Of a DNA stretch of 37,619 bases, positions 1 through 37,619 are shown in pieces. A program made the position numbers and the translations under genes. A model generated the notes under the pieces. The model did no database searches, had not been told where the DNA came from, and was given only the letters and a program-made list of their open reading frames with translations. Location: IMG/VR virus record IMGVR_UViG_3300021791_000005, positions 1-37,619 of that record. The stretch is one strand, 5' to 3'. The stretch is from a virus. Its lineage: Duplodnaviria > Caudoviricetes. Every line of letters starts with the position of its first letter. The first letter of the stretch is position 1.

Positions 1-59
1 AAACCAACAACAATATCAACAAGACCTTCTCCATCTTTTTTAGACACTTCTTTTATCCT

Positions 60-284
60 TTATCCTTTAATTTTTTCGATATAGCCGTCTGAGTCTACCG
101 AAACGCTTGCGTACCACTTGTGAGGCTTCGGATAATGTGGTCCCTCGATTGTAGTGGAGCAATTTGAAGGACGAAAAGGAAACCCTGTTACGTCTGCATT
201 CGGTTGATGTACACGAATCTTAATTCCGCTCTTAAAGTCCTCTTTAAGCTGTTTTTTTGTTTTGTAGTCTTTATCTGTATACAC
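60..284 (-). CDS. Hypothetical early protein, 74 aa (GTG start)
   Basis: ORF with AAGGA upstream; 9 of 11 differences from the second copy are synonymous, which indicates real coding. Confidence 0.85.
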   Translation of the reverse strand: MYTDKDYKTKKQLKEDFKSGIKIRVHQPNADVTGFPFRPSNCSTTIEGPHYPKPHKWYASVSVDSDGYIEKIKG

Positions 285-313
285 CGTAAATCCTTATCGT
301 TTGTGTTGTTCGT

Positions 314-348
314 AGATAAAGAGAATCCATCATCTTGTGCTCTGATAC
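314..348. repeat. Arm of 35-bp inverted repeat (partner 1247-1281)
   Basis: AGATAAAGAGAATCCATCATCTTGTGCTCTGATAC is the reverse complement of 1247-1281 at 31/35 positions. Confidence 0.95.
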
Positions 349-368
349 TGTTGATACGGTGTAACGTG

Positions 369-1226
369 TCAGCCGGAAACTACTGTTGAATCGCTCTCCT
401 CTGGCTTGGTTGCTTCGGAGAGCTCTTCATCTGTGAGGACCGAGTCCCAGTCGAGTGAAGGATTTTGTGCTCTCAATAGTCTAATCGTCGATATCGTTGC
501 GGAGGAGTCTTGACCATTGGCTCCCACTAGAGCTTGAACTACTCCTCTCATCGTGTCGGTTGCTACCTTGTCGGCTTTAACCGAACCCCTAAGACTCTTA
601 CGCTCACATGCGCTTAGGAATATTTCTATGAGACTTTCAATCGTCAAGTAAGTGTCCGACGCATCATTAATTGTAATCTCACCACCTGTAACGATACCGG
701 TTATCGATACCGGCGTAATTCCGCTTTTATCCGACGATTTTCTTTTAGCAACCGTAGTTTGTTTTTCTACTCTTTCTTTTGTTTCGGCGTTTCGCTCAAG
801 TTGTACGGAAATCAGCAGATGCCTAATATAACCTTCTCCTATCTGTATTTGTGATACGAGTTGACGGGCACCTACACTATAGTGATTTTCGATGGCATCA
901 CCAATCGAGCCGTCAAGCAGTTCTACGACGTCTTCATATCTTGTGGTGTCAAGTGCTTTAAGCAGCCCGACAAGCGACATCCAATCATTTGTCGCGTTAA
1001 CTTCCACCTCAGCGTCGGAAAGAAGCGATGTGTAAAAGTTATCCCAATGATGGTCCCTTGTGGTTATCGCGCCGAAAACCCTTCGGCACAAGGTCACGAG
1101 GGCATCATCATTGAGCGCCAGAGCTTCACCCGAAGCGCGAAAGCAAAACAAATGATTAATGTTGTCTGTCGTTTTGTGCGCGAATGCCGTGTGCTCTTTG
1201 CTGGTGTTAAATGTATTGGATAACAT
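369..1226 (-). CDS. Hypothetical first early protein, 285 aa, acidic C-terminus
   Basis: Long ORF; ATG at 1226 follows AAAGGTAGGG; the upstream ATG at 1292 would read through the repeat arm and is less likely. Confidence 0.8.
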   Translation of the reverse strand: MLSNTFNTSKEHTAFAHKTTDNINHLFCFRASGEALALNDDALVTLCRRVFGAITTRDHHWDNFYTSLLSDAEVEVNATNDWMSLVGLLKALDTTRYEDVVELLDGSIGDAIENHYSVGARQLVSQIQIGEGYIRHLLISVQLERNAETKERVEKQTTVAKRKSSDKSGITPVSITGIVTGGEITINDASDTYLTIESLIEIFLSACERKSLRGSVKADKVATDTMRGVVQALVGANGQDSSATISTIRLLRAQNPSLDWDSVLTDEELSEATKPEESDSTVVSG

Positions 1227-1246
1227 GATCCCTACCTTTATTTTAT

Positions 1247-1281
1247 GTACCAGAGCACAGGATGATAAATTCTCTTTATCT
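1247..1281. repeat. Arm of 35-bp inverted repeat (partner 314-348)
   Basis: GTACCAGAGCACAGGATGATAAATTCTCTTTATCT. Confidence 0.95.
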
Positions 1282-1400
1282 GGTCCTTTCATGGTTTGGT
1301 TGACGTCAACCGTCTGAACCTTACCAAGCCTGCTTATAGCCTTTACAGCTTCGTTCGTCGGTTTACCGAGGTCCCTCGTACGACGATAGCAGGAATCAAA

Positions 1401-1412
1401 TTGTCAAAGATC
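1401..1412 (-). promoter_or_regulatory. boxA-like antitermination element (GATCTTTGACAA)
   Basis: Resembles rrn boxA (E. coli TGCTCTTTAACA); lies ~45 nt downstream of the predicted TSS, just after a hairpin. Confidence 0.6.
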
Positions 1413-1461
1413 GTATAGCGAAATCCGATCGGAGATACTAAAACCGATCGGCTGATACGGG

Positions 1462-1490
1462 AGGATACCGAAAAACGGTTCCGGGGTCAA
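1462..1490 (-). promoter_or_regulatory. sigma70-type early promoter
   Basis: TTGACC-17 bp-TATCCT, A-tract upstream of -35, CCCG discriminator. Confidence 0.75.
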
Positions 1491-2031
1491 CACTTTTTCC
1501 GAGAATTCGATGTTCCGGTAATGTTCGGGTCGACGAAAGGCCGGACCGGCATTAAATGCTATATACGCAGAAGAAAAAGAAACGACGCTCTCGTGTTATA
1601 GCATGCCCTGGGCCACCCAGGGGCAACGACGGCGCACCGATACGACGAAGAATACGGGCAAGCTGTAATACAGTCGGGCGTTCTGGCGACGCGGGAATTG
1701 TTGACGCGGGGAGCGGGCGCCGGACAGAGTGATACTTCTATCGCGTGACCGAGAGCTGGTGACCGAGAGCGCTCCGTCGTCCCGTATCTGGCGTGACGAT
1801 TCCTCGAGGTTTGCGCTCTCGTCTATCGTGGGACCGTCGAAAATAGCCGGTACCCCCGTAAAATCATAGCCGTATTTCTATAACTATAGCCCATTACACA
1901 GGTTGCAGTCTTATCCGCCTGCTTTTGTGCGGGGGGCAGTAAAGATAACGAAACCCCCGGAGGAGCGAAGCGGGGGAGGGGGTTTTCCGTTGACATAAGA
2001 AAGATCCCCACCTCCGGAATTTTTTTTTATT

Positions 2032-2060
2032 TTCATAGGGTCAAGATTTTGGAATAGAAT
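2032..2060 (+). promoter_or_regulatory. sigma70-type rightward promoter
   Basis: TTCATA-17 bp-TAGAAT preceded by a T-rich UP-like tract. Confidence 0.55.
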
Positions 2061-2067
2061 TGTAGTA

Positions 2068-2192
2068 GTAGCCGGGCAGGTATTAGTTTTAGAATTTAAG
2101 GAGAGCCTTTAAATTCTGGACAGAGCACTCGTTTACTACGTGACTTTGTTGGTTGCACCCTAATTTCCGATTGTTGCCCGGCTATTTTTTTT
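2068..2192 (+). ncRNA. Candidate structured small RNA or attenuator leader
   Basis: Closing stem TAGCCGGGCA (2069-2078) / TGCCCGGCTA (2175-2184) followed by T8; two internal hairpins; begins at the predicted TSS. Confidence 0.5.
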
Positions 2193-2212
2193 AGAAGGAG
2201 TCTTTTACGCCC

Positions 2213-2494
2213 ATGGACGATCAACTACGCGACGAGCAACATGCTCGTGAGTGCCGAGAGTTAGTCAATATTTCTAGGAAGTTTACCGATATTATTCATA
2301 ATTTGCCGTCAGTCGTTTCTAGTGAATCAGTGGGAGAAACATCTAAGATTGCTGAATTATTCAGTCACACGCTTACCGCTTTTATTGAGCGTCATTATGG
2401 TTCCCCCGATCTAGACATTCGTGTTTACACATATGATGAGATTATGTCCGGAGAAATGGACCATAATGGCCCCGTATCTTATGATAATGAGTAG
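2213..2494 (+). CDS. Hypothetical acidic protein, 93 aa
   Basis: ORF with AAGGAG upstream. Confidence 0.75.
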   Translation: MDDQLRDEQHARECRELVNISRKFTDIIHNLPSVVSSESVGETSKIAELFSHTLTAFIERHYGSPDLDIRVYTYDEIMSGEMDHNGPVSYDNE

Positions 2495-2511
2495 GAGGGA
2501 GGAGGCGGTTA

Positions 2512-2640
2512 ATGCCTAAGGTCGGTGGTCGTAATTTTTCATACAGTAAGAAGGGTCGAGCAGCGGCCAAACGGCACGCAGCGAAGACCAGTCAAAAGGT
2601 CAATAATCAGCGTATCAAAGGTAAATCACGAGGTAAATAG
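2512..2640 (+). CDS. Small basic protein, 42 aa (MPKVGGRNFSYSKKGRAAAKRHAAKTSQKVNNQRIKGKSRGK), not in the ORF track
   Basis: GGAGG RBS, ATG to TAG, fills the gap exactly, no acidic residues. Confidence 0.8.
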   Translation: MPKVGGRNFSYSKKGRAAAKRHAAKTSQKVNNQRIKGKSRGK

Positions 2641-2648
2641 TTATGCCA
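2620..2648. repeat. 29-bp direct repeat copy 1 (RBS/start unit)
   Basis: GGTAAATCACGAGGTAAATAGTTATGCCA, identical at 3060-3088. Confidence 0.95.
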
Positions 2649-3056
2649 GGATCACAATCTTCTATCCCTAATCCCACTTACGGACAACCGGCGCGGCCAG
2701 GACGTCGAAAGAAACTCAAGAAAAATAACACCGGTATGCGGCTACCCAAGGCTCCTAAGCGTCAGAATAAGAAGATCAGGGCAGCGGCTAAAAAGACATC
2801 AGCTCTCGAATCAGCTTATACAACAGCAAAGGTTAAAGGTCTTACCGACCTTTCTAAAATCGGTCCCGGCGCTAAGAAGAAGGCGAAAAAGGTCAGGAAG
2901 GATTACGTTTCTAGCGTTGGTCTTAAAAAGAAGAGGGCCAAAAAGAAGATGTCTAAAATTGGAAAGGCTCTTACTCGGGCTCAACAACAGCGCTTATTTA
3001 AGAAAATGGCGCAGGAATATGGGTTATTTGGTGGTGTCAATCAGGCCGGGCGATAA
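2643..3056 (+). CDS. Lys/Arg/Ala-rich histone-H1-like basic protein, paralog 1
   Basis: About 30% K+R with 4 acidic residues; GAGG RBS; ~75-aa core shared with 3083-3616. Confidence 0.75.
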   Translation: MPGSQSSIPNPTYGQPARPGRRKKLKKNNTGMRLPKAPKRQNKKIRAAAKKTSALESAYTTAKVKGLTDLSKIGPGAKKKAKKVRKDYVSSVGLKKKRAKKKMSKIGKALTRAQQQRLFKKMAQEYGLFGGVNQAGR

Positions 3057-3059
3057 ATT

Positions 3060-3088
3060 GGTAAATCACGAGGTAAATAGTTATGCCA
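3060..3088. repeat. 29-bp direct repeat copy 2
   Basis: Identical to 2620-2648. Confidence 0.95.
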
Positions 3089-3616
3089 AAAATTCGGAAA
3101 CGACCACCGGGTGCGAAACCACGAAAATCATATCCCCTGGGCATATATTCGTATGATAAGGAGTTTGCGGCATTTGCTGAGCGCGTTCATAGTTCCCCTC
3201 CTTCCGGTAACCCACGTCGAAAGAAAACCGGTCGAAAGCCTCCTAAGCCACCTGCCCGTCAGAAGAAGAAGATCAGGGCAGCAGCTAAAAAGACATCGGC
3301 TTCAGCTTATGGAAAAGCAAATGTTGAAGGCATGGCCGACTATTCTAAAATAAAGGGTGGCTTTGGTCTTAAGAAGAAGACCAAAAAGGTCAGGAAGGAT
3401 TACGTTTCTGGCGTTGGTCTTAAGAAGAAGAAGGCCAAGAAGAAGATGTCTAAAATTAAAAAGGCTCTTACACCGCCACCCATCCCCCGCCTCAATGTCA
3501 AAGGGAAACCTACCTTTGATTACGCCGGGAAAGTCGCCCGGCGAAAACGCACAATCCAAGAGCTAAACCAATCCAAGAAAAGGGTTCGTCGGCCGCCTCT
3601 GAGTCGTAGGCCCTGA
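3083..3616 (+). CDS. Lys/Arg/Pro-rich basic protein, paralog 2
   Basis: Shares KKIRAAAKKTSA and KKVRKDYVSxVGLKKKxAKKKMSKIxKALT with paralog 1. Confidence 0.75.
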   Translation: MPKIRKRPPGAKPRKSYPLGIYSYDKEFAAFAERVHSSPPSGNPRRKKTGRKPPKPPARQKKKIRAAAKKTSASAYGKANVEGMADYSKIKGGFGLKKKTKKVRKDYVSGVGLKKKKAKKKMSKIKKALTPPPIPRLNVKGKPTFDYAGKVARRKRTIQELNQSKKRVRRPPLSRRP

Positions 3617-3776: not shown

Positions 3777-3916
3777 ATATCCAGCTTATACGGGGTAATT
3801 TGCCAGTGATCTAAACTAGGCGTAATACAGGGAAATCAGTTATGGCTATCTGGGAATTCACTCCCTGGATAGCTTTTTTAATATTCCGAATATCTGTTAT
3901 TAAGAATGACTTAAGA

Positions 3917-4285
3917 ATGACACCCAAGCTTGAATACCATAACGACCTCTACAAGCGAAACGCCAAGGTCCGTCGTGTAGTTGACGGCGACACCATAGAC
4001 GTGGACGTTGATCTTGGATTTCATGTATATACAAGGCAAAGACTTAGGCTACTTCGGGTAGACACACCAGAGGTTCGTGGCAAGGAGCGCGAGGAGGGTC
4101 TTAAGTATAAAGCCTTTGTAGAATATCGTTTACCGGTAGGCTCTAATGTAATAGTCCAGAGTTACAAAACGGGCAAGTATGGACGATATCTTGCCGAGGT
4201 TTGGTACCAGGTAAGCCCTGACACACCCAGGCCGTTAACCTATATAAACCTTAACGAGGAGCTATTGGAGAAGCTTACCGGTTAG
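3917..4285 (+). CDS. Thermonuclease (SNase-like) family nuclease
   Basis: VVDGDTIDVDVDLGF, RLLRVDTPE and GKYGRYLA motifs; start could be 3842 or 3917. Confidence 0.9.
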   Translation: MTPKLEYHNDLYKRNAKVRRVVDGDTIDVDVDLGFHVYTRQRLRLLRVDTPEVRGKEREEGLKYKAFVEYRLPVGSNVIVQSYKTGKYGRYLAEVWYQVSPDTPRPLTYINLNEELLEKLTG

Positions 4286-26340: not shown

Positions 26341-26664
26341 ATGCCTTCACCCGGCGATGTTGTTACCTATTTTGAAGCTTATGACGGAGGCTTTGACTGC
26401 TTTTCGGCTAGCGTCACGTCTGTAAGGGGTGGCAACCTTTTGGATCTTAGCTTCCCGCTCGGAATTCGCGTATCGATACCATGGCTTGAGGATTTCCCTG
26501 CTGATCCGACGATAGACTTCTGGTCATTTGGCGAACGGCCAGAGTTATGGCCACAGAACACAATCGACTTGTTAGACCGTGTGGATGTCGGTTTTATTCC
26601 GCGCCCATTGACGCCAAGGAAAAGCTACACCTACAAGGATGACACGTGGCGGTATCACGCATAA
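26341..26664 (+). CDS. Hypothetical protein, 107 aa
   Basis: ORF with PSPGDVVTY start; GC-richer than its surroundings. Confidence 0.65.
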   Translation: MPSPGDVVTYFEAYDGGFDCFSASVTSVRGGNLLDLSFPLGIRVSIPWLEDFPADPTIDFWSFGERPELWPQNTIDLLDRVDVGFIPRPLTPRKSYTYKDDTWRYHA

Positions 26665-28196
26665 ACGCTTGGGCTAGGGACGAGGACATAGCCGGGGAGC
26701 CTACGCTTACCGTTGCGTCGGGAGGCAATCGAATCGTCGTGGCCTTTTGTACGGTGGAACATAACGGCGCAGGCGGCAATCCGAATACAGACGAGATTGA
26801 ACTCCCCGATGGTAGCACCACGGGACAGATCCATCCCACACTAAAGCTAGATGATACCGCGTTCACGTATTCACATGGGGAGACGACTGGGTACCCTTGG
26901 ACCTATTCAAACGCTCTCTTTGTTTTCTACTTGCTCGAATCAGATATCGCTTCTTTGACTGCCGGGGCAGCGTTTTCAATTGAATATGATTTCGATGATG
27001 CCAGTGGTACTAACTTCCCAGCTTCTGGCGGTGACGTAGTAAAGATACACTACGCTGCATACGAAAATGTTGATCAGACCGACCCATTTAGCGGTCAGGG
27101 AGGATTCGAGGGCTCGGACAGTCGAATACAGACGCAAGACGTACCAGATACCAACGCCTTAGAGAATGAGCAATGGCTTCTCTTCTGTTCGGGCGACAAA
27201 GAAGACTCTGAGTTTTCCATTACGAACGTCGCGCCAGCGACCTTCGCCTCCGAGTGGACTCCGGTTAGCACGTTAAATGACGGCTCTTCTCCAGCGACCA
27301 CCCATGAAGCTAGTTACGTCTTTGAACGTAATAATACCGATGCATCGACTGACGAGTGGGATGACATAACGGTTGATTCCACTGAGCCAACTCGTTTAGG
27401 CGTCATCTCCCTTGTCTTACAGAATGACGATGCTGTCAGTGGGCAAGACGCTACCGCTGAACTTGCTACAGCTACTTTTTCAGGTCTCTCAGCTACAGCC
27501 ACGCTTAGTACTCCTGCTAGCTTGGCAACTGCAAGTTTTACTGGGTTAGCAGCTACTGCTGAACTTAACTCTACAGCTAACCTGGCCACTGCTTCTTTTA
27601 CGGGATTGGCAGCTACATCCCAACTTAGCGCTACCGCTGGTTTAGCTACTGCTACATTTGAAGGCTTGGCTGCTACAGCAGCACAAGATTTGTTAGCTAA
27701 TGCTGAATTAGCCACAGCTACATTCGTTGGTTTGGCTGCTACTCCAAAGCTGAATGCTACAGCTGGTATAGCAACCGCCACGGCTGCTGGCCTATCAGCT
27801 ACTACTACACAAACTACAACAGCTAGCCTAGCTACAGTTACATTTAATGGCCTAAGCGCCACGCCTGAACTCAAAGCTGTATCTGGGTTAGCTACTTCTT
27901 CTTTTGTAGGATTGGAAGCTACTGCTGATATAGATGGCTTATCTGCTACCGCTGAATTAGCTACAGCGGAATTTGTCGGGCTATCAGCTACAGTTACGCT
28001 AAGTTCTACTGCTGGGTTAGCTTCTACAACCTTTGTTGGTTTGGCTGGGAGAACTGGTGAAATCCTAGTAGTTGGACAAACTACAGATACCCTTCTAAAC
28101 ACTGCTGTTATTAATGACACCTTTATGGATAAGACTTTGAGTAGAGATAGCAATATAACTATCACCTCAAACGAGGATGTATTCCTAGGAGCCTGA
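26646..28196 (+). CDS. Virion fibre/decoration protein with acidic N-terminal domain and Ala/Thr repeats
   Basis: AAGGA + GTG; about 10 repeats of A(G/E/S)LATATFxGL(A/S)AT. Confidence 0.7.
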   Translation: MAVSRINAWARDEDIAGEPTLTVASGGNRIVVAFCTVEHNGAGGNPNTDEIELPDGSTTGQIHPTLKLDDTAFTYSHGETTGYPWTYSNALFVFYLLESDIASLTAGAAFSIEYDFDDASGTNFPASGGDVVKIHYAAYENVDQTDPFSGQGGFEGSDSRIQTQDVPDTNALENEQWLLFCSGDKEDSEFSITNVAPATFASEWTPVSTLNDGSSPATTHEASYVFERNNTDASTDEWDDITVDSTEPTRLGVISLVLQNDDAVSGQDATAELATATFSGLSATATLSTPASLATASFTGLAATAELNSTANLATASFTGLAATSQLSATAGLATATFEGLAATAAQDLLANAELATATFVGLAATPKLNATAGIATATAAGLSATTTQTTTASLATVTFNGLSATPELKAVSGLATSSFVGLEATADIDGLSATAELATAEFVGLSATVTLSSTAGLASTTFVGLAGRTGEILVVGQTTDTLLNTAVINDTFMDKTLSRDSNITITSNEDVFLGA

Positions 28197-34783: not shown

Positions 34784-34800
34784 TTTATAAATTTAATGAT

Positions 34801-34843
34801 CCGGCCACTAGCTTGAGTTAATTAAACGGCCACCATCTTGAGT
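34801..34843. repeat. Pair of 17-bp motifs CGGCCACYA(T/G)CTTGAGT
   Basis: Copies at 34802-34818 and 34827-34843; second pair at 37087-37123. Confidence 0.9.
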
Positions 34844-34876
34844 AAAAAAACCCTACGGTATAGATATACCGTAGGG
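34844..34876 (-). terminator. Intrinsic terminator
   Basis: CCCTACGGTAT/ATACCGTAGGG stem followed by T7 on the - strand. Confidence 0.85.
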
Positions 34877-34896: not shown

Positions 34897-35145
34897 TTAA
34901 GTCTTATTTTGTATCTTCTTCTTACTTCTTTTCTTCTTTGGTCTTCCTATTTTCCGCTTCTTTTCTGCCCATTCAATTAATGAATTAGTGTTATAGAGTC
35001 TACCAAGTGGAGTTTCTATTACATCTTTAATGTCTCCTCTGGCTGTTACTCTTCTAATCCAGGATGTACTTTTACCAACAAATCTTGCAGCTTCAGCGGC
35101 TGTAAGTACTGGTAGTTTAATAGGGTCATTTCCAGAAGTACTCAT
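34897..35145 (-). CDS. Excisionase/MerR-like HTH DNA-binding protein with basic tail
   Basis: LTAAEAARFVGKSTSWIRR; C-terminal GRPKKKR. Confidence 0.8.
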   Translation of the reverse strand: MSTSGNDPIKLPVLTAAEAARFVGKSTSWIRRVTARGDIKDVIETPLGRLYNTNSLIEWAEKKRKIGRPKKKRSKKKIQNKT

Positions 35146-37051: not shown

Positions 37052-37084
37052 TTCCTTCCTTTTTATTTTGGAAAAAGTTATTAG

Positions 37085-37124
37085 ACCGGCCACCAACTTT
37101 AGTTACCGGCCACCATCTTGAGTT
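37085..37124. repeat. Tandem 20-bp motif pair ACCGGCCACCAWCTTKAGTT
   Basis: Two adjacent copies; same motif as 34801-34843. Confidence 0.9.
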
Positions 37125-37142
37125 AAAAAAAAGAAATGTAGT

Positions 37143-37180
37143 AAAAAAACCCAGGTATACCTTTGTTGGTATACCTGGGT
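37143..37180 (-). terminator. Intrinsic terminator
   Basis: ACCCAGGTATACC/GGTATACCTGGGT 13-bp stem with T tract on the - strand. Confidence 0.88.
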
Positions 37181-37209: not shown

Positions 37210-37314
37210 TTACGACCCGAGCATACTAAGACAAACAAGGAAGATAAACGCTACTCCGAACCAAGCTAAACCAACAACAATATCAACAAGACCTTCTCCA
37301 TCTTTTTTAGACAC
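37210..37314 (-). CDS. 34-aa single-pass membrane peptide (MSKKDGEGLVDIVVGLAWFGVAFIFLVCLSMLGS), not in the ORF track
   Basis: AAGGA + GTG start; one hydrophobic helix; ends just before the terminator. Confidence 0.65.
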   Translation of the reverse strand: MSKKDGEGLVDIVVGLAWFGVAFIFLVCLSMLGS

Positions 37315-37619
37315 TTCTTTTATCCTTTATCCTTTAATTTTTTCGATATAGCCGTCTGAGTCTACCGAAACGCTTGCGTACCACTTGTGAGGCTTTGGGT
37401 AATGTGGCCCTTCGATTGTAGTGGAGCAATTTGAAGGACGAAAAGGAAACCCTGTTACGTCTGCATTCGGTTGATGTACACGAATCTTAGTTCCGCTTTT
37501 GAAGTCCTCTTTAAGCTGTTTTTTTGTTTTGTAATCTTTGTCGGTATACATCGTAAATCCTTATCGTTTGTGTTGTTCGTAGATAAAGAGAATCCATCAT
37601 CTTGTGCTCTGATACTGTT
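37268..37619. repeat. Right copy of imperfect terminal direct repeat
   Basis: Matches 1-352. Confidence 0.95.
37327..37551 (-). CDS. Allelic copy of the 74-aa early protein (ATG start)
   Basis: One amino-acid difference (I/T) from 60-284. Confidence 0.85.
   Translation of the reverse strand: MYTDKDYKTKKQLKEDFKSGTKIRVHQPNADVTGFPFRPSNCSTTIEGPHYPKPHKWYASVSVDSDGYIEKIKG

Follow-up and report, generated by a model that had tools for sequence, protein, structure and literature searches.

A long-range inverted repeat around the first early gene of a marine tailed phage, and its likeness to a ribosomal RNA leader and stem

Close to one end of a phage sequence, two stretches of 35 nucleotides that are almost each other's reverse complement enclose exactly one gene. 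What does such a bracket do? The sequence is IMG/VR record IMGVR_UViG_3300021791_000005, and the whole of it, 37,619 nucleotides, is called the window here. The answer leaned towards below is that the two arms pair in the RNA as a leader-trailer helix around this gene, gene 1, and that the helix is cut by host RNase III.

The window comes from a tailed phage. Its plus strand encodes terminase, portal and a capsid protein of the SU10 type, while its minus strand carries replication genes, with family assignment from 39 of 84 ORFs scanned. A search with the capsid protein matched 117 records; the 25 listed share 22-28% identity with it, and LUZ24-like Pseudomonas phages are among them, as is a Pelagibacter phage. 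The sequencing runs in which the window occurs are mostly labelled marine; no RNA dataset is among the matches listed. The record is classed as linear and 40% complete. Positions 1-352 recur at 37268-37619 with 11 differences, and this terminal repeat is probably the overlap of two strains.

Some other parts of the window are unusual in their own right. Short tandem units at 1714-1770 and 2213-2240, presumed to be a genome-end region, vary in copy number among strain contigs, with insertions of 14 nt after 1744 and 15 nt after 2215. The lysine-rich small ORFs at 2494-3616 are partly duplicated internally, over 497 nt, and a stop and the next start are covered by an exact repeat of 29 nt. A 516-aa ORF at 26646-28196 consists of 60-nt repeats without a family match, and is possibly a fibre.

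The 5' arm lies at 1247..1281 and the 3' arm at 314..348, both on the minus strand, as given by an inverted-repeat scan, its scoring and a fold. A second copy of the 3' arm is found at 37581..37615 (-), within the 352-nt terminal overlap. The arms are 35 nt long, 898 nt apart and 89% complementary. Their score of 29 is the best for any ungapped repeat in 1-3000, where 60 Markov-resampled sequences reached a mean of 12.4 (sd 1.2) and a maximum of 16. In the window from 1 to 37267 no stronger inverted repeat occurs within 2.5 kb. The initial annotation had described the arms as inverted repeats matching at 31 of 35 positions, and this holds up against the resampled sequences.

That the repeat is due to chance, or to faulty assembly close to the end of the contig, has next to no credibility. 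The 3' arm does sit in the terminal overlap of two strain versions, but the score is far above what resampling produces and both arms are unchanged in independent strain contigs. The arms also differ at 4 positions, so neither is a copy of the other.

Relatives of the arms were sought by protein, arm and DNA searches of viral contigs, metagenomes and cultured phages, which returned no diverged one. A 21-mer from the arm has 0 matches in viral contigs and 4 in metagenomes; these 4 are all single, lie inside unrelated sequence and were judged to be chance. A loose contig end at 1261 (run X3) was considered as an arm with other cargo, and is likely chance too, given a match of about 30 nt that is less than 95% alike.

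The enclosed gene, at 369..1226 (-), is the first minus strand gene beyond a non-coding region at 1500-2200. Between the arms are a 20-nt leader with a Shine-Dalgarno-like stretch (1230..1238, -), the ORF of 285 aa running from 1226 to 369, and a 20-nt trailer. The ORF and repeat coordinates thus agree with the earlier statement that nothing but a ribosome-binding site, this ORF and a 20-nt trailer is enclosed. An alternative start, the ATG at 1292, would give 307 aa and read through the 5' arm. By eye this ATG has no ribosome-binding site, and in one strain contig (depth 4.2) it is destroyed by 1290 C>T.

The gene 1 protein is an acidic orphan (pI 4.9). It belongs to no Pfam or PHROG family, and its only relative is one protein, P0002, with 91-92% identity and without genome context. 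A search of viral contigs reported 3 matches, none of which is among the matches listed, leaving 0 loci. In an atlas search all hits stayed under 0.8 and gave no function, and the structure model has a pLDDT of 44, unusable for function. Cultured-phage DNA gave no match, and a search with a neighbouring 251-aa gene yielded no relatives. A scan of 1-2400 at E values up to 5 found no Rfam match, and the enclosed unit is a 285-aa ORF, not an rRNA gene. There is no tRNA in the window.

On the minus strand, the sense strand of gene 1, the arms pair through 31 Watson-Crick and 3 G-U pairs, with 1 C-A mismatch. These are the same counts, 34 of 35, that were reported initially. Folding the minus strand transcript, as the initial annotation had proposed, does form the helix, with a pair probability of 0.9-1.0 at 34 of the 35 positions. 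Its uninterrupted runs are 21 and 13 pairs, it has no bulge, and the C-A is the single mismatch. Signal and background could not be told apart by duplex energies of 80-nt flanks.

A long leader-trailer helix enclosing a unit, as in the rrn type, is present here. RNase III acts on A-form duplex that continues for some two turns, and the 21- and 13-pair runs offer this. An unbroken 21-pair duplex is an ordinary substrate of the enzyme, and the rrn-like leader described below points toward a processing route as well. The helix might nevertheless stay uncut, and simply clamp the ends of the gene 1 message, for protection or for the tuning of translation or read-through. This is rather unlikely, even though the structural evidence is silent on cleavage, and RNase III could react less readily with a helix that has a C-A mismatch and tandem G-U pairs. 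The recognition rules also vary between RNase III enzymes, going by excerpts of PMC3074117.

Is it RNA that pairs? Three of the four imperfect positions are G-U on the sense strand and A-C on the other, where the tally is 31 Watson-Crick, 1 G-U and 3 A-C. This had been taken as a sign of selection on RNA pairing, a conclusion that the numbers do not support: three out of four gives p=0.31, and both strands fold the helix. The fold energies are -50.7 kcal/mol for sense and -45.4 kcal/mol for antisense, and with DNA parameters the two strands come out at -28.8 and -28.3 kcal/mol. Given that antisense folds the helix nearly as well as sense, RNA cannot be told from single-stranded DNA in this way.

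Tallies of G-U against A-C across the other phage loci introduced below behave similarly. They are 19 against 25 in a set of 99 repeats, 14 against 15 in a set of 949 genes, and in two further tallies 11 against 6 (p=0.17) and 26 against 17 (p=0.11). The 11 against 6 follows a rule under which 13 of the 21 bracketing rows fell away, 11 for palindromic arms (including L010 and one stem of L033) and 2 for being too far, and 2 rows from the boxA set came in. Two other tallies, 12 against 3 and 13 against 6, were set aside as hand-picked. The excess of G-U over A-C is significant in no tally.

This leaves room for a DNA-level reading, in which pairing takes place in single-stranded DNA or a cruciform at the leading genome end, during entry or replication. 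It draws on a helix that is stable on either strand under DNA parameters, and on a strand asymmetry that is not significant. It is very improbable all the same. The arms keep to the gene borders within 20 nt and follow an RNA-level signal, and tailed phages inject double-stranded DNA.

That signal lies in the leader. A sigma-70-type promoter-like site, TTGACC-17-TATCCT, is found at 1462..1490 (-), with 9 of 12 consensus matches, and an early transcript start is predicted near 1455. Sites of this quality number 5 in 1-2300, where shuffles give 2.9 +/- 1.9, which alone is weak evidence. The predicted transcript begins with an 8-bp hairpin (1425..1451, -) that appears in both the MFE and the centroid structure. 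It occupies the boxB position, by prediction 12 nt before a boxA-like motif. Its arms are two copies of a palindromic 8-mer, and the hairpin may alternatively be read as an operator pair.

The boxA-like motif, GATCTTTGACAA, is located at 1401..1412 (-), after the promoter-like site and on the transcribed strand. Counted by hand against the B. subtilis and E. coli consensus sequences in excerpts of PMC13753749, it matches 11 of 13 and 9 of 12 positions respectively. The gammaproteobacterial consensus GYTCTTTAANA, given in 10.1101/091223, is matched imperfectly; that paper also places a small hairpin immediately upstream of boxA in B. subtilis leaders. A relaxed boxA pattern has 2 matches in the window where 0.36 are expected, a number reached in 6 of 100 shuffles, and the pattern was picked after three cases had been seen. 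A search of 5 genomes with a boxA-like pattern gave 6 matches in 3 of them.

From the motif to the 5' arm it is 119 nt, so the two are not adjacent as they are in rrnB. The spacer (1292..1393, -) is predicted to fold into several hairpins. The leader fold has z = -2.16, with a low MFE frequency that makes the details of the spacer uncertain. Going along the minus strand, the order is promoter-like site, hairpin, boxA-like motif, arm, gene 1, arm, gene 2 and a terminator-like hairpin.

For the RNase III reading we infer the following steps. Transcription would start near 1455, and the boxA-like leader would load NusB-S10 and its partners in the host Nus complex. The complex would hold on to the 5' arm and deliver it to the 3' arm. 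Once gene 1 has been transcribed, the helix could close, and host RNase III would make a staggered cut, as it does at the 16S and 23S stems. This would release a gene 1 message with paired ends, and a separate gene 2 message.

Gene 2 is the second early gene, and encodes 74 aa at 60..284 (-), with a second copy at 37327-37551. It is part of a phage family, and has the motif EGPHYPKPHKWY. Its own ribosome-binding site is outside the helix, which means that no cut is necessary to free that site. After gene 2, at 37149..37180 (-), there is an intrinsic-terminator-like hairpin of 13 bp plus a U run, and this would end the first transcript on a circular reading of the contig.

The gene 2 family (A1) is of interest by itself. 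It has 117 relatives in viral contigs, is 67-74 aa long, widespread and early, has EGPHYPKPHKWY as an invariant motif and corresponds to no Pfam or PHROG family. Members occur in cultured Pseudomonas Abidjanvirus phages. In locus L001 the 74-aa homologue is flanked by local hairpins of 27-30 bp (3909-3978 and 4209-4271) and not by a bracket, whereas L010 brackets the 74-aa gene with a long-range stem; these are two designs around one gene family. Around the 74-aa homologue of phage Lucjan, and in a LUZ24-like early region, neither a bracket stem nor a boxA was found.

Terminator-like hairpins also mark another pattern in the window. Two such sites on the minus strand (37076-37180 and 34791-34876) each lead straight into two tandem copies of a 17-nt motif (at 37123, 37103, 34843 and 34818), ahead of the next gene block. 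By chance 0.04 would be expected. The pairs are likely an operator, or a middle promoter activated by the phage. Just before the second site lies an HTH_17 gene (34897-35145).

Brackets of this kind do recur. A set of loci was anchored on the gene 2 family, giving 89, or 78 after dereplication, to which the window was added. Repeats were found using a strand-neutral score, and these 79 loci contain 99 long-range repeats. Exactly one ORF is enclosed by 11 of the 99, counting the window and palindromic repeats in L022, L048 and L104. Random shifts produce 1.56 +/- 1.23 (maximum 7 in 300), and the antisense strand 2. Among 949 called genes, 6 brackets score at least 20, where 0.85 are expected. 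Gene borders are respected in these other phages too.

The clearest layout is that of L033 (4596-6587), which has three stems end to end, each around one or two genes, and where each 3' arm is followed by the next 5' arm within 4 nt. In L045 and L047 a boxA-like motif, by a pattern chosen once these loci had been seen, lies at or just before the arm; a search with the bracketed protein of L047 returned only the protein itself. L061, L072, L104 and L031 have something else between their early genes, namely repeated families of 16-26-nt palindromes that look operator-like.

The arms could also be DNA sites that belong to an insertion element, to a switch that inverts or to a swappable gene cassette. 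One ORF between imperfect inverted ends of 35 bp, in 968 bp or about 1 kb, is reminiscent of an insertion sequence. The gene 1 ORF has 46% G+C, compared to 36-37% in two other early genes, although the leader outside the arms has a similar 48%. The duplicated contig end stops 4 nt inside the bracket, and the other strain could differ there; it may carry different cargo after the 3' arm. Unlike an insertion sequence, however, the element exists as a single copy, and there is no target-site duplication, with no abutting repeat in the 20-nt flanks. No transposase, integrase or invertase family turned up in the Pfam and PHROG scan of 39 of the 84 ORFs, where a novel enzyme is possible.

Strain data bear on the same question. 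An arm is crossed by three contigs, which come from two runs of the same study and all have the reference orientation; contigs drop rare variants. No inverted joints are listed in 8 runs, 6 of them with contigs and few of those crossing an arm, which is thin cover; the contigs of runs X10 and X11 miss the arms. In favour of the paired helix, if only at p about 0.07-0.09, non-coding strain differences number 7 beside the arms and 0 inside. In different phages the arm sequences are unrelated and have nothing in common, and the enclosed proteins are unrelated to that of gene 1. Unrelated arms fit a structure better than a recombinase site. All in all, arms that serve as DNA sites are improbable.

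Does boxA predict a stem? A second set of viral contigs was collected using the boxA 15-mer, for 120 loci, 98 after dereplication, with 67 long enough. A stem after the 15-mer is no commoner than before it (5/61 downstream, 5/65 in the mirror position), and only 3 of 90 genes in these loci are bracketed. BoxA is no general predictor of a stem.

The 15-mer does keep other company. In 7 of 39 intergenic occurrences (L121, L143, L150, L154, L159, L167 and L180) it is inside a cluster of 3-25 phage tRNA or tmRNA genes, and all 54 of 54 genes are on the strand of the motif. Within genes, 1 of 28 occurrences has a tRNA cluster, on the opposite strand. Among 139 background tiles, 7 hold a tRNA and 0 hold at least 3. 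An Rfam scan of 40 loci agrees with the clustering. Such same-strand clustering would be the behaviour of an antitermination signal for untranslated RNA, and suggests that phage tRNA operons use Nus antitermination.

If the RNase III reading of the window is right, the host's route for transcribing and processing rRNA serves a protein-coding phage message. The Nus complex and RNase III would then have a role beyond lambda antitermination and the processing sites of T7. The bracket would also flag the most urgent orphan early gene of a phage, and be a guide to host-takeover and counter-defence proteins.

A broader proposal is tentative, and more doubtful than the reading of this one locus. It holds that in many lytic phages, unrelated to each other, the first early gene passes as pre-rRNA, with arm delivery through boxA, Nus, SuhB and S4 and release by RNase III. 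If true, the production line that builds host ribosomes makes the mRNA of the phage's first takeover protein, and which gene is the cargo would be arbitrary. The window is an example from a distant marine lineage, where boxA is apart from the arm, and is itself a weak test case, its gene being an orphan and diverged relatives lacking.

Long-range RNA duplexes are not new. In B. subtilis mRNAs, RNase III acts on long-range duplexes of 10-36 bp that span more than 100 nt, with cuts spaced 2 nt apart; the runs of 21 and 13 pairs in the window fall within this range (PMC11780869, in part). The passages seen of that paper concern mRNA decay, and do not describe the enclosure of a whole gene or a boxA leader. 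The initial annotation knew of no description of the arrangement for a phage mRNA. For a boxA followed by arms of this kind around a phage gene this stands, since none was found in a literature search that was mainly open-access, but long-range mRNA duplexes as such are known.

Another earlier suggestion was that the message forms a panhandle that could be circularised. In archaea, circles are formed from a bulge-helix-bulge, which has two 3-nt bulges around a 4-bp helix. The helix in the window has no bulges, and the circle has no support.

Phage T7 is similar in that its early polycistronic RNA is transcribed by the host, from promoters A1-A3, and that a boxA is matched at 813, ahead of gene 0.3. 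Gene 0.3 differs by having no long stem around it (best score 10.8), and the RNase III sites of T7 are local hairpins. RNase III cuts at five sites divide the early RNA into mono- and dicistronic messages, according to the part of PMC4858673 that was seen. Separate messages are also what the cut proposed for the window would yield.

The bacterial rrn operon is closest in layout. It shares with the window the order of hairpin, boxA, 5' arm, enclosed unit and 3' arm. Using the same scanner, the stem is 35 long in the window and 36 around the 16S of E. coli rrnB, which boxA also precedes. The rrn leader has the order boxB-boxA-boxC and a Nus/SuhB/S4 complex. This complex keeps the 5' RNA close to the exit channel in rRNA operons, and is proposed to bring the 5' arm to its partner, per excerpts of PMC8632103. 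In the window the enclosed unit is not rRNA but codes for a protein and has a ribosome-binding site of its own, and no boxC was identified. The gap between boxA and arm is 119 nt, compared to 0-11 nt in rrnB, the SP6-type phages, L045 and L047. The likeness to an rRNA processing stem has thus gained from the order, the recurrence and a promoter-hairpin-boxA leader that had earlier gone unseen, and has lost from a boxA that is not adjacent and from the lack of rRNA. At best the layout would work like an rrn leader and stem; it is not an rrn unit.

Early regions of SP6/K1E/PM85-type phages (Molineuxvirinae) come with a boxA, an arm of 18-30 bp, one to four genes and the partner arm. Compared to the window, their arm follows directly after boxA, there are two or three units per genome, and both the sequence and the phage group are unrelated. 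In 11 cultured SP6/K1E-type phages, a stem with a score of at least 13 starts 0-9 nt after 18 of 27 boxA sites, versus 0/26 upstream and 1/27 in reversed controls; 8 of the 11 were chosen because their sequence resembles the boxA and arm of SP6, and are not independent. Older genome papers on SP6 and K1-5 may already carry annotations of these sites. One homologous SP6-type stem, in 8 distinct versions, has 101 of 104 core cells paired and 3 columns changed two-sidedly, and its outer part adds 6 two-sided columns, all from one version. Since cultured SP6/K1E-type phages have the layout, it is already open to testing.
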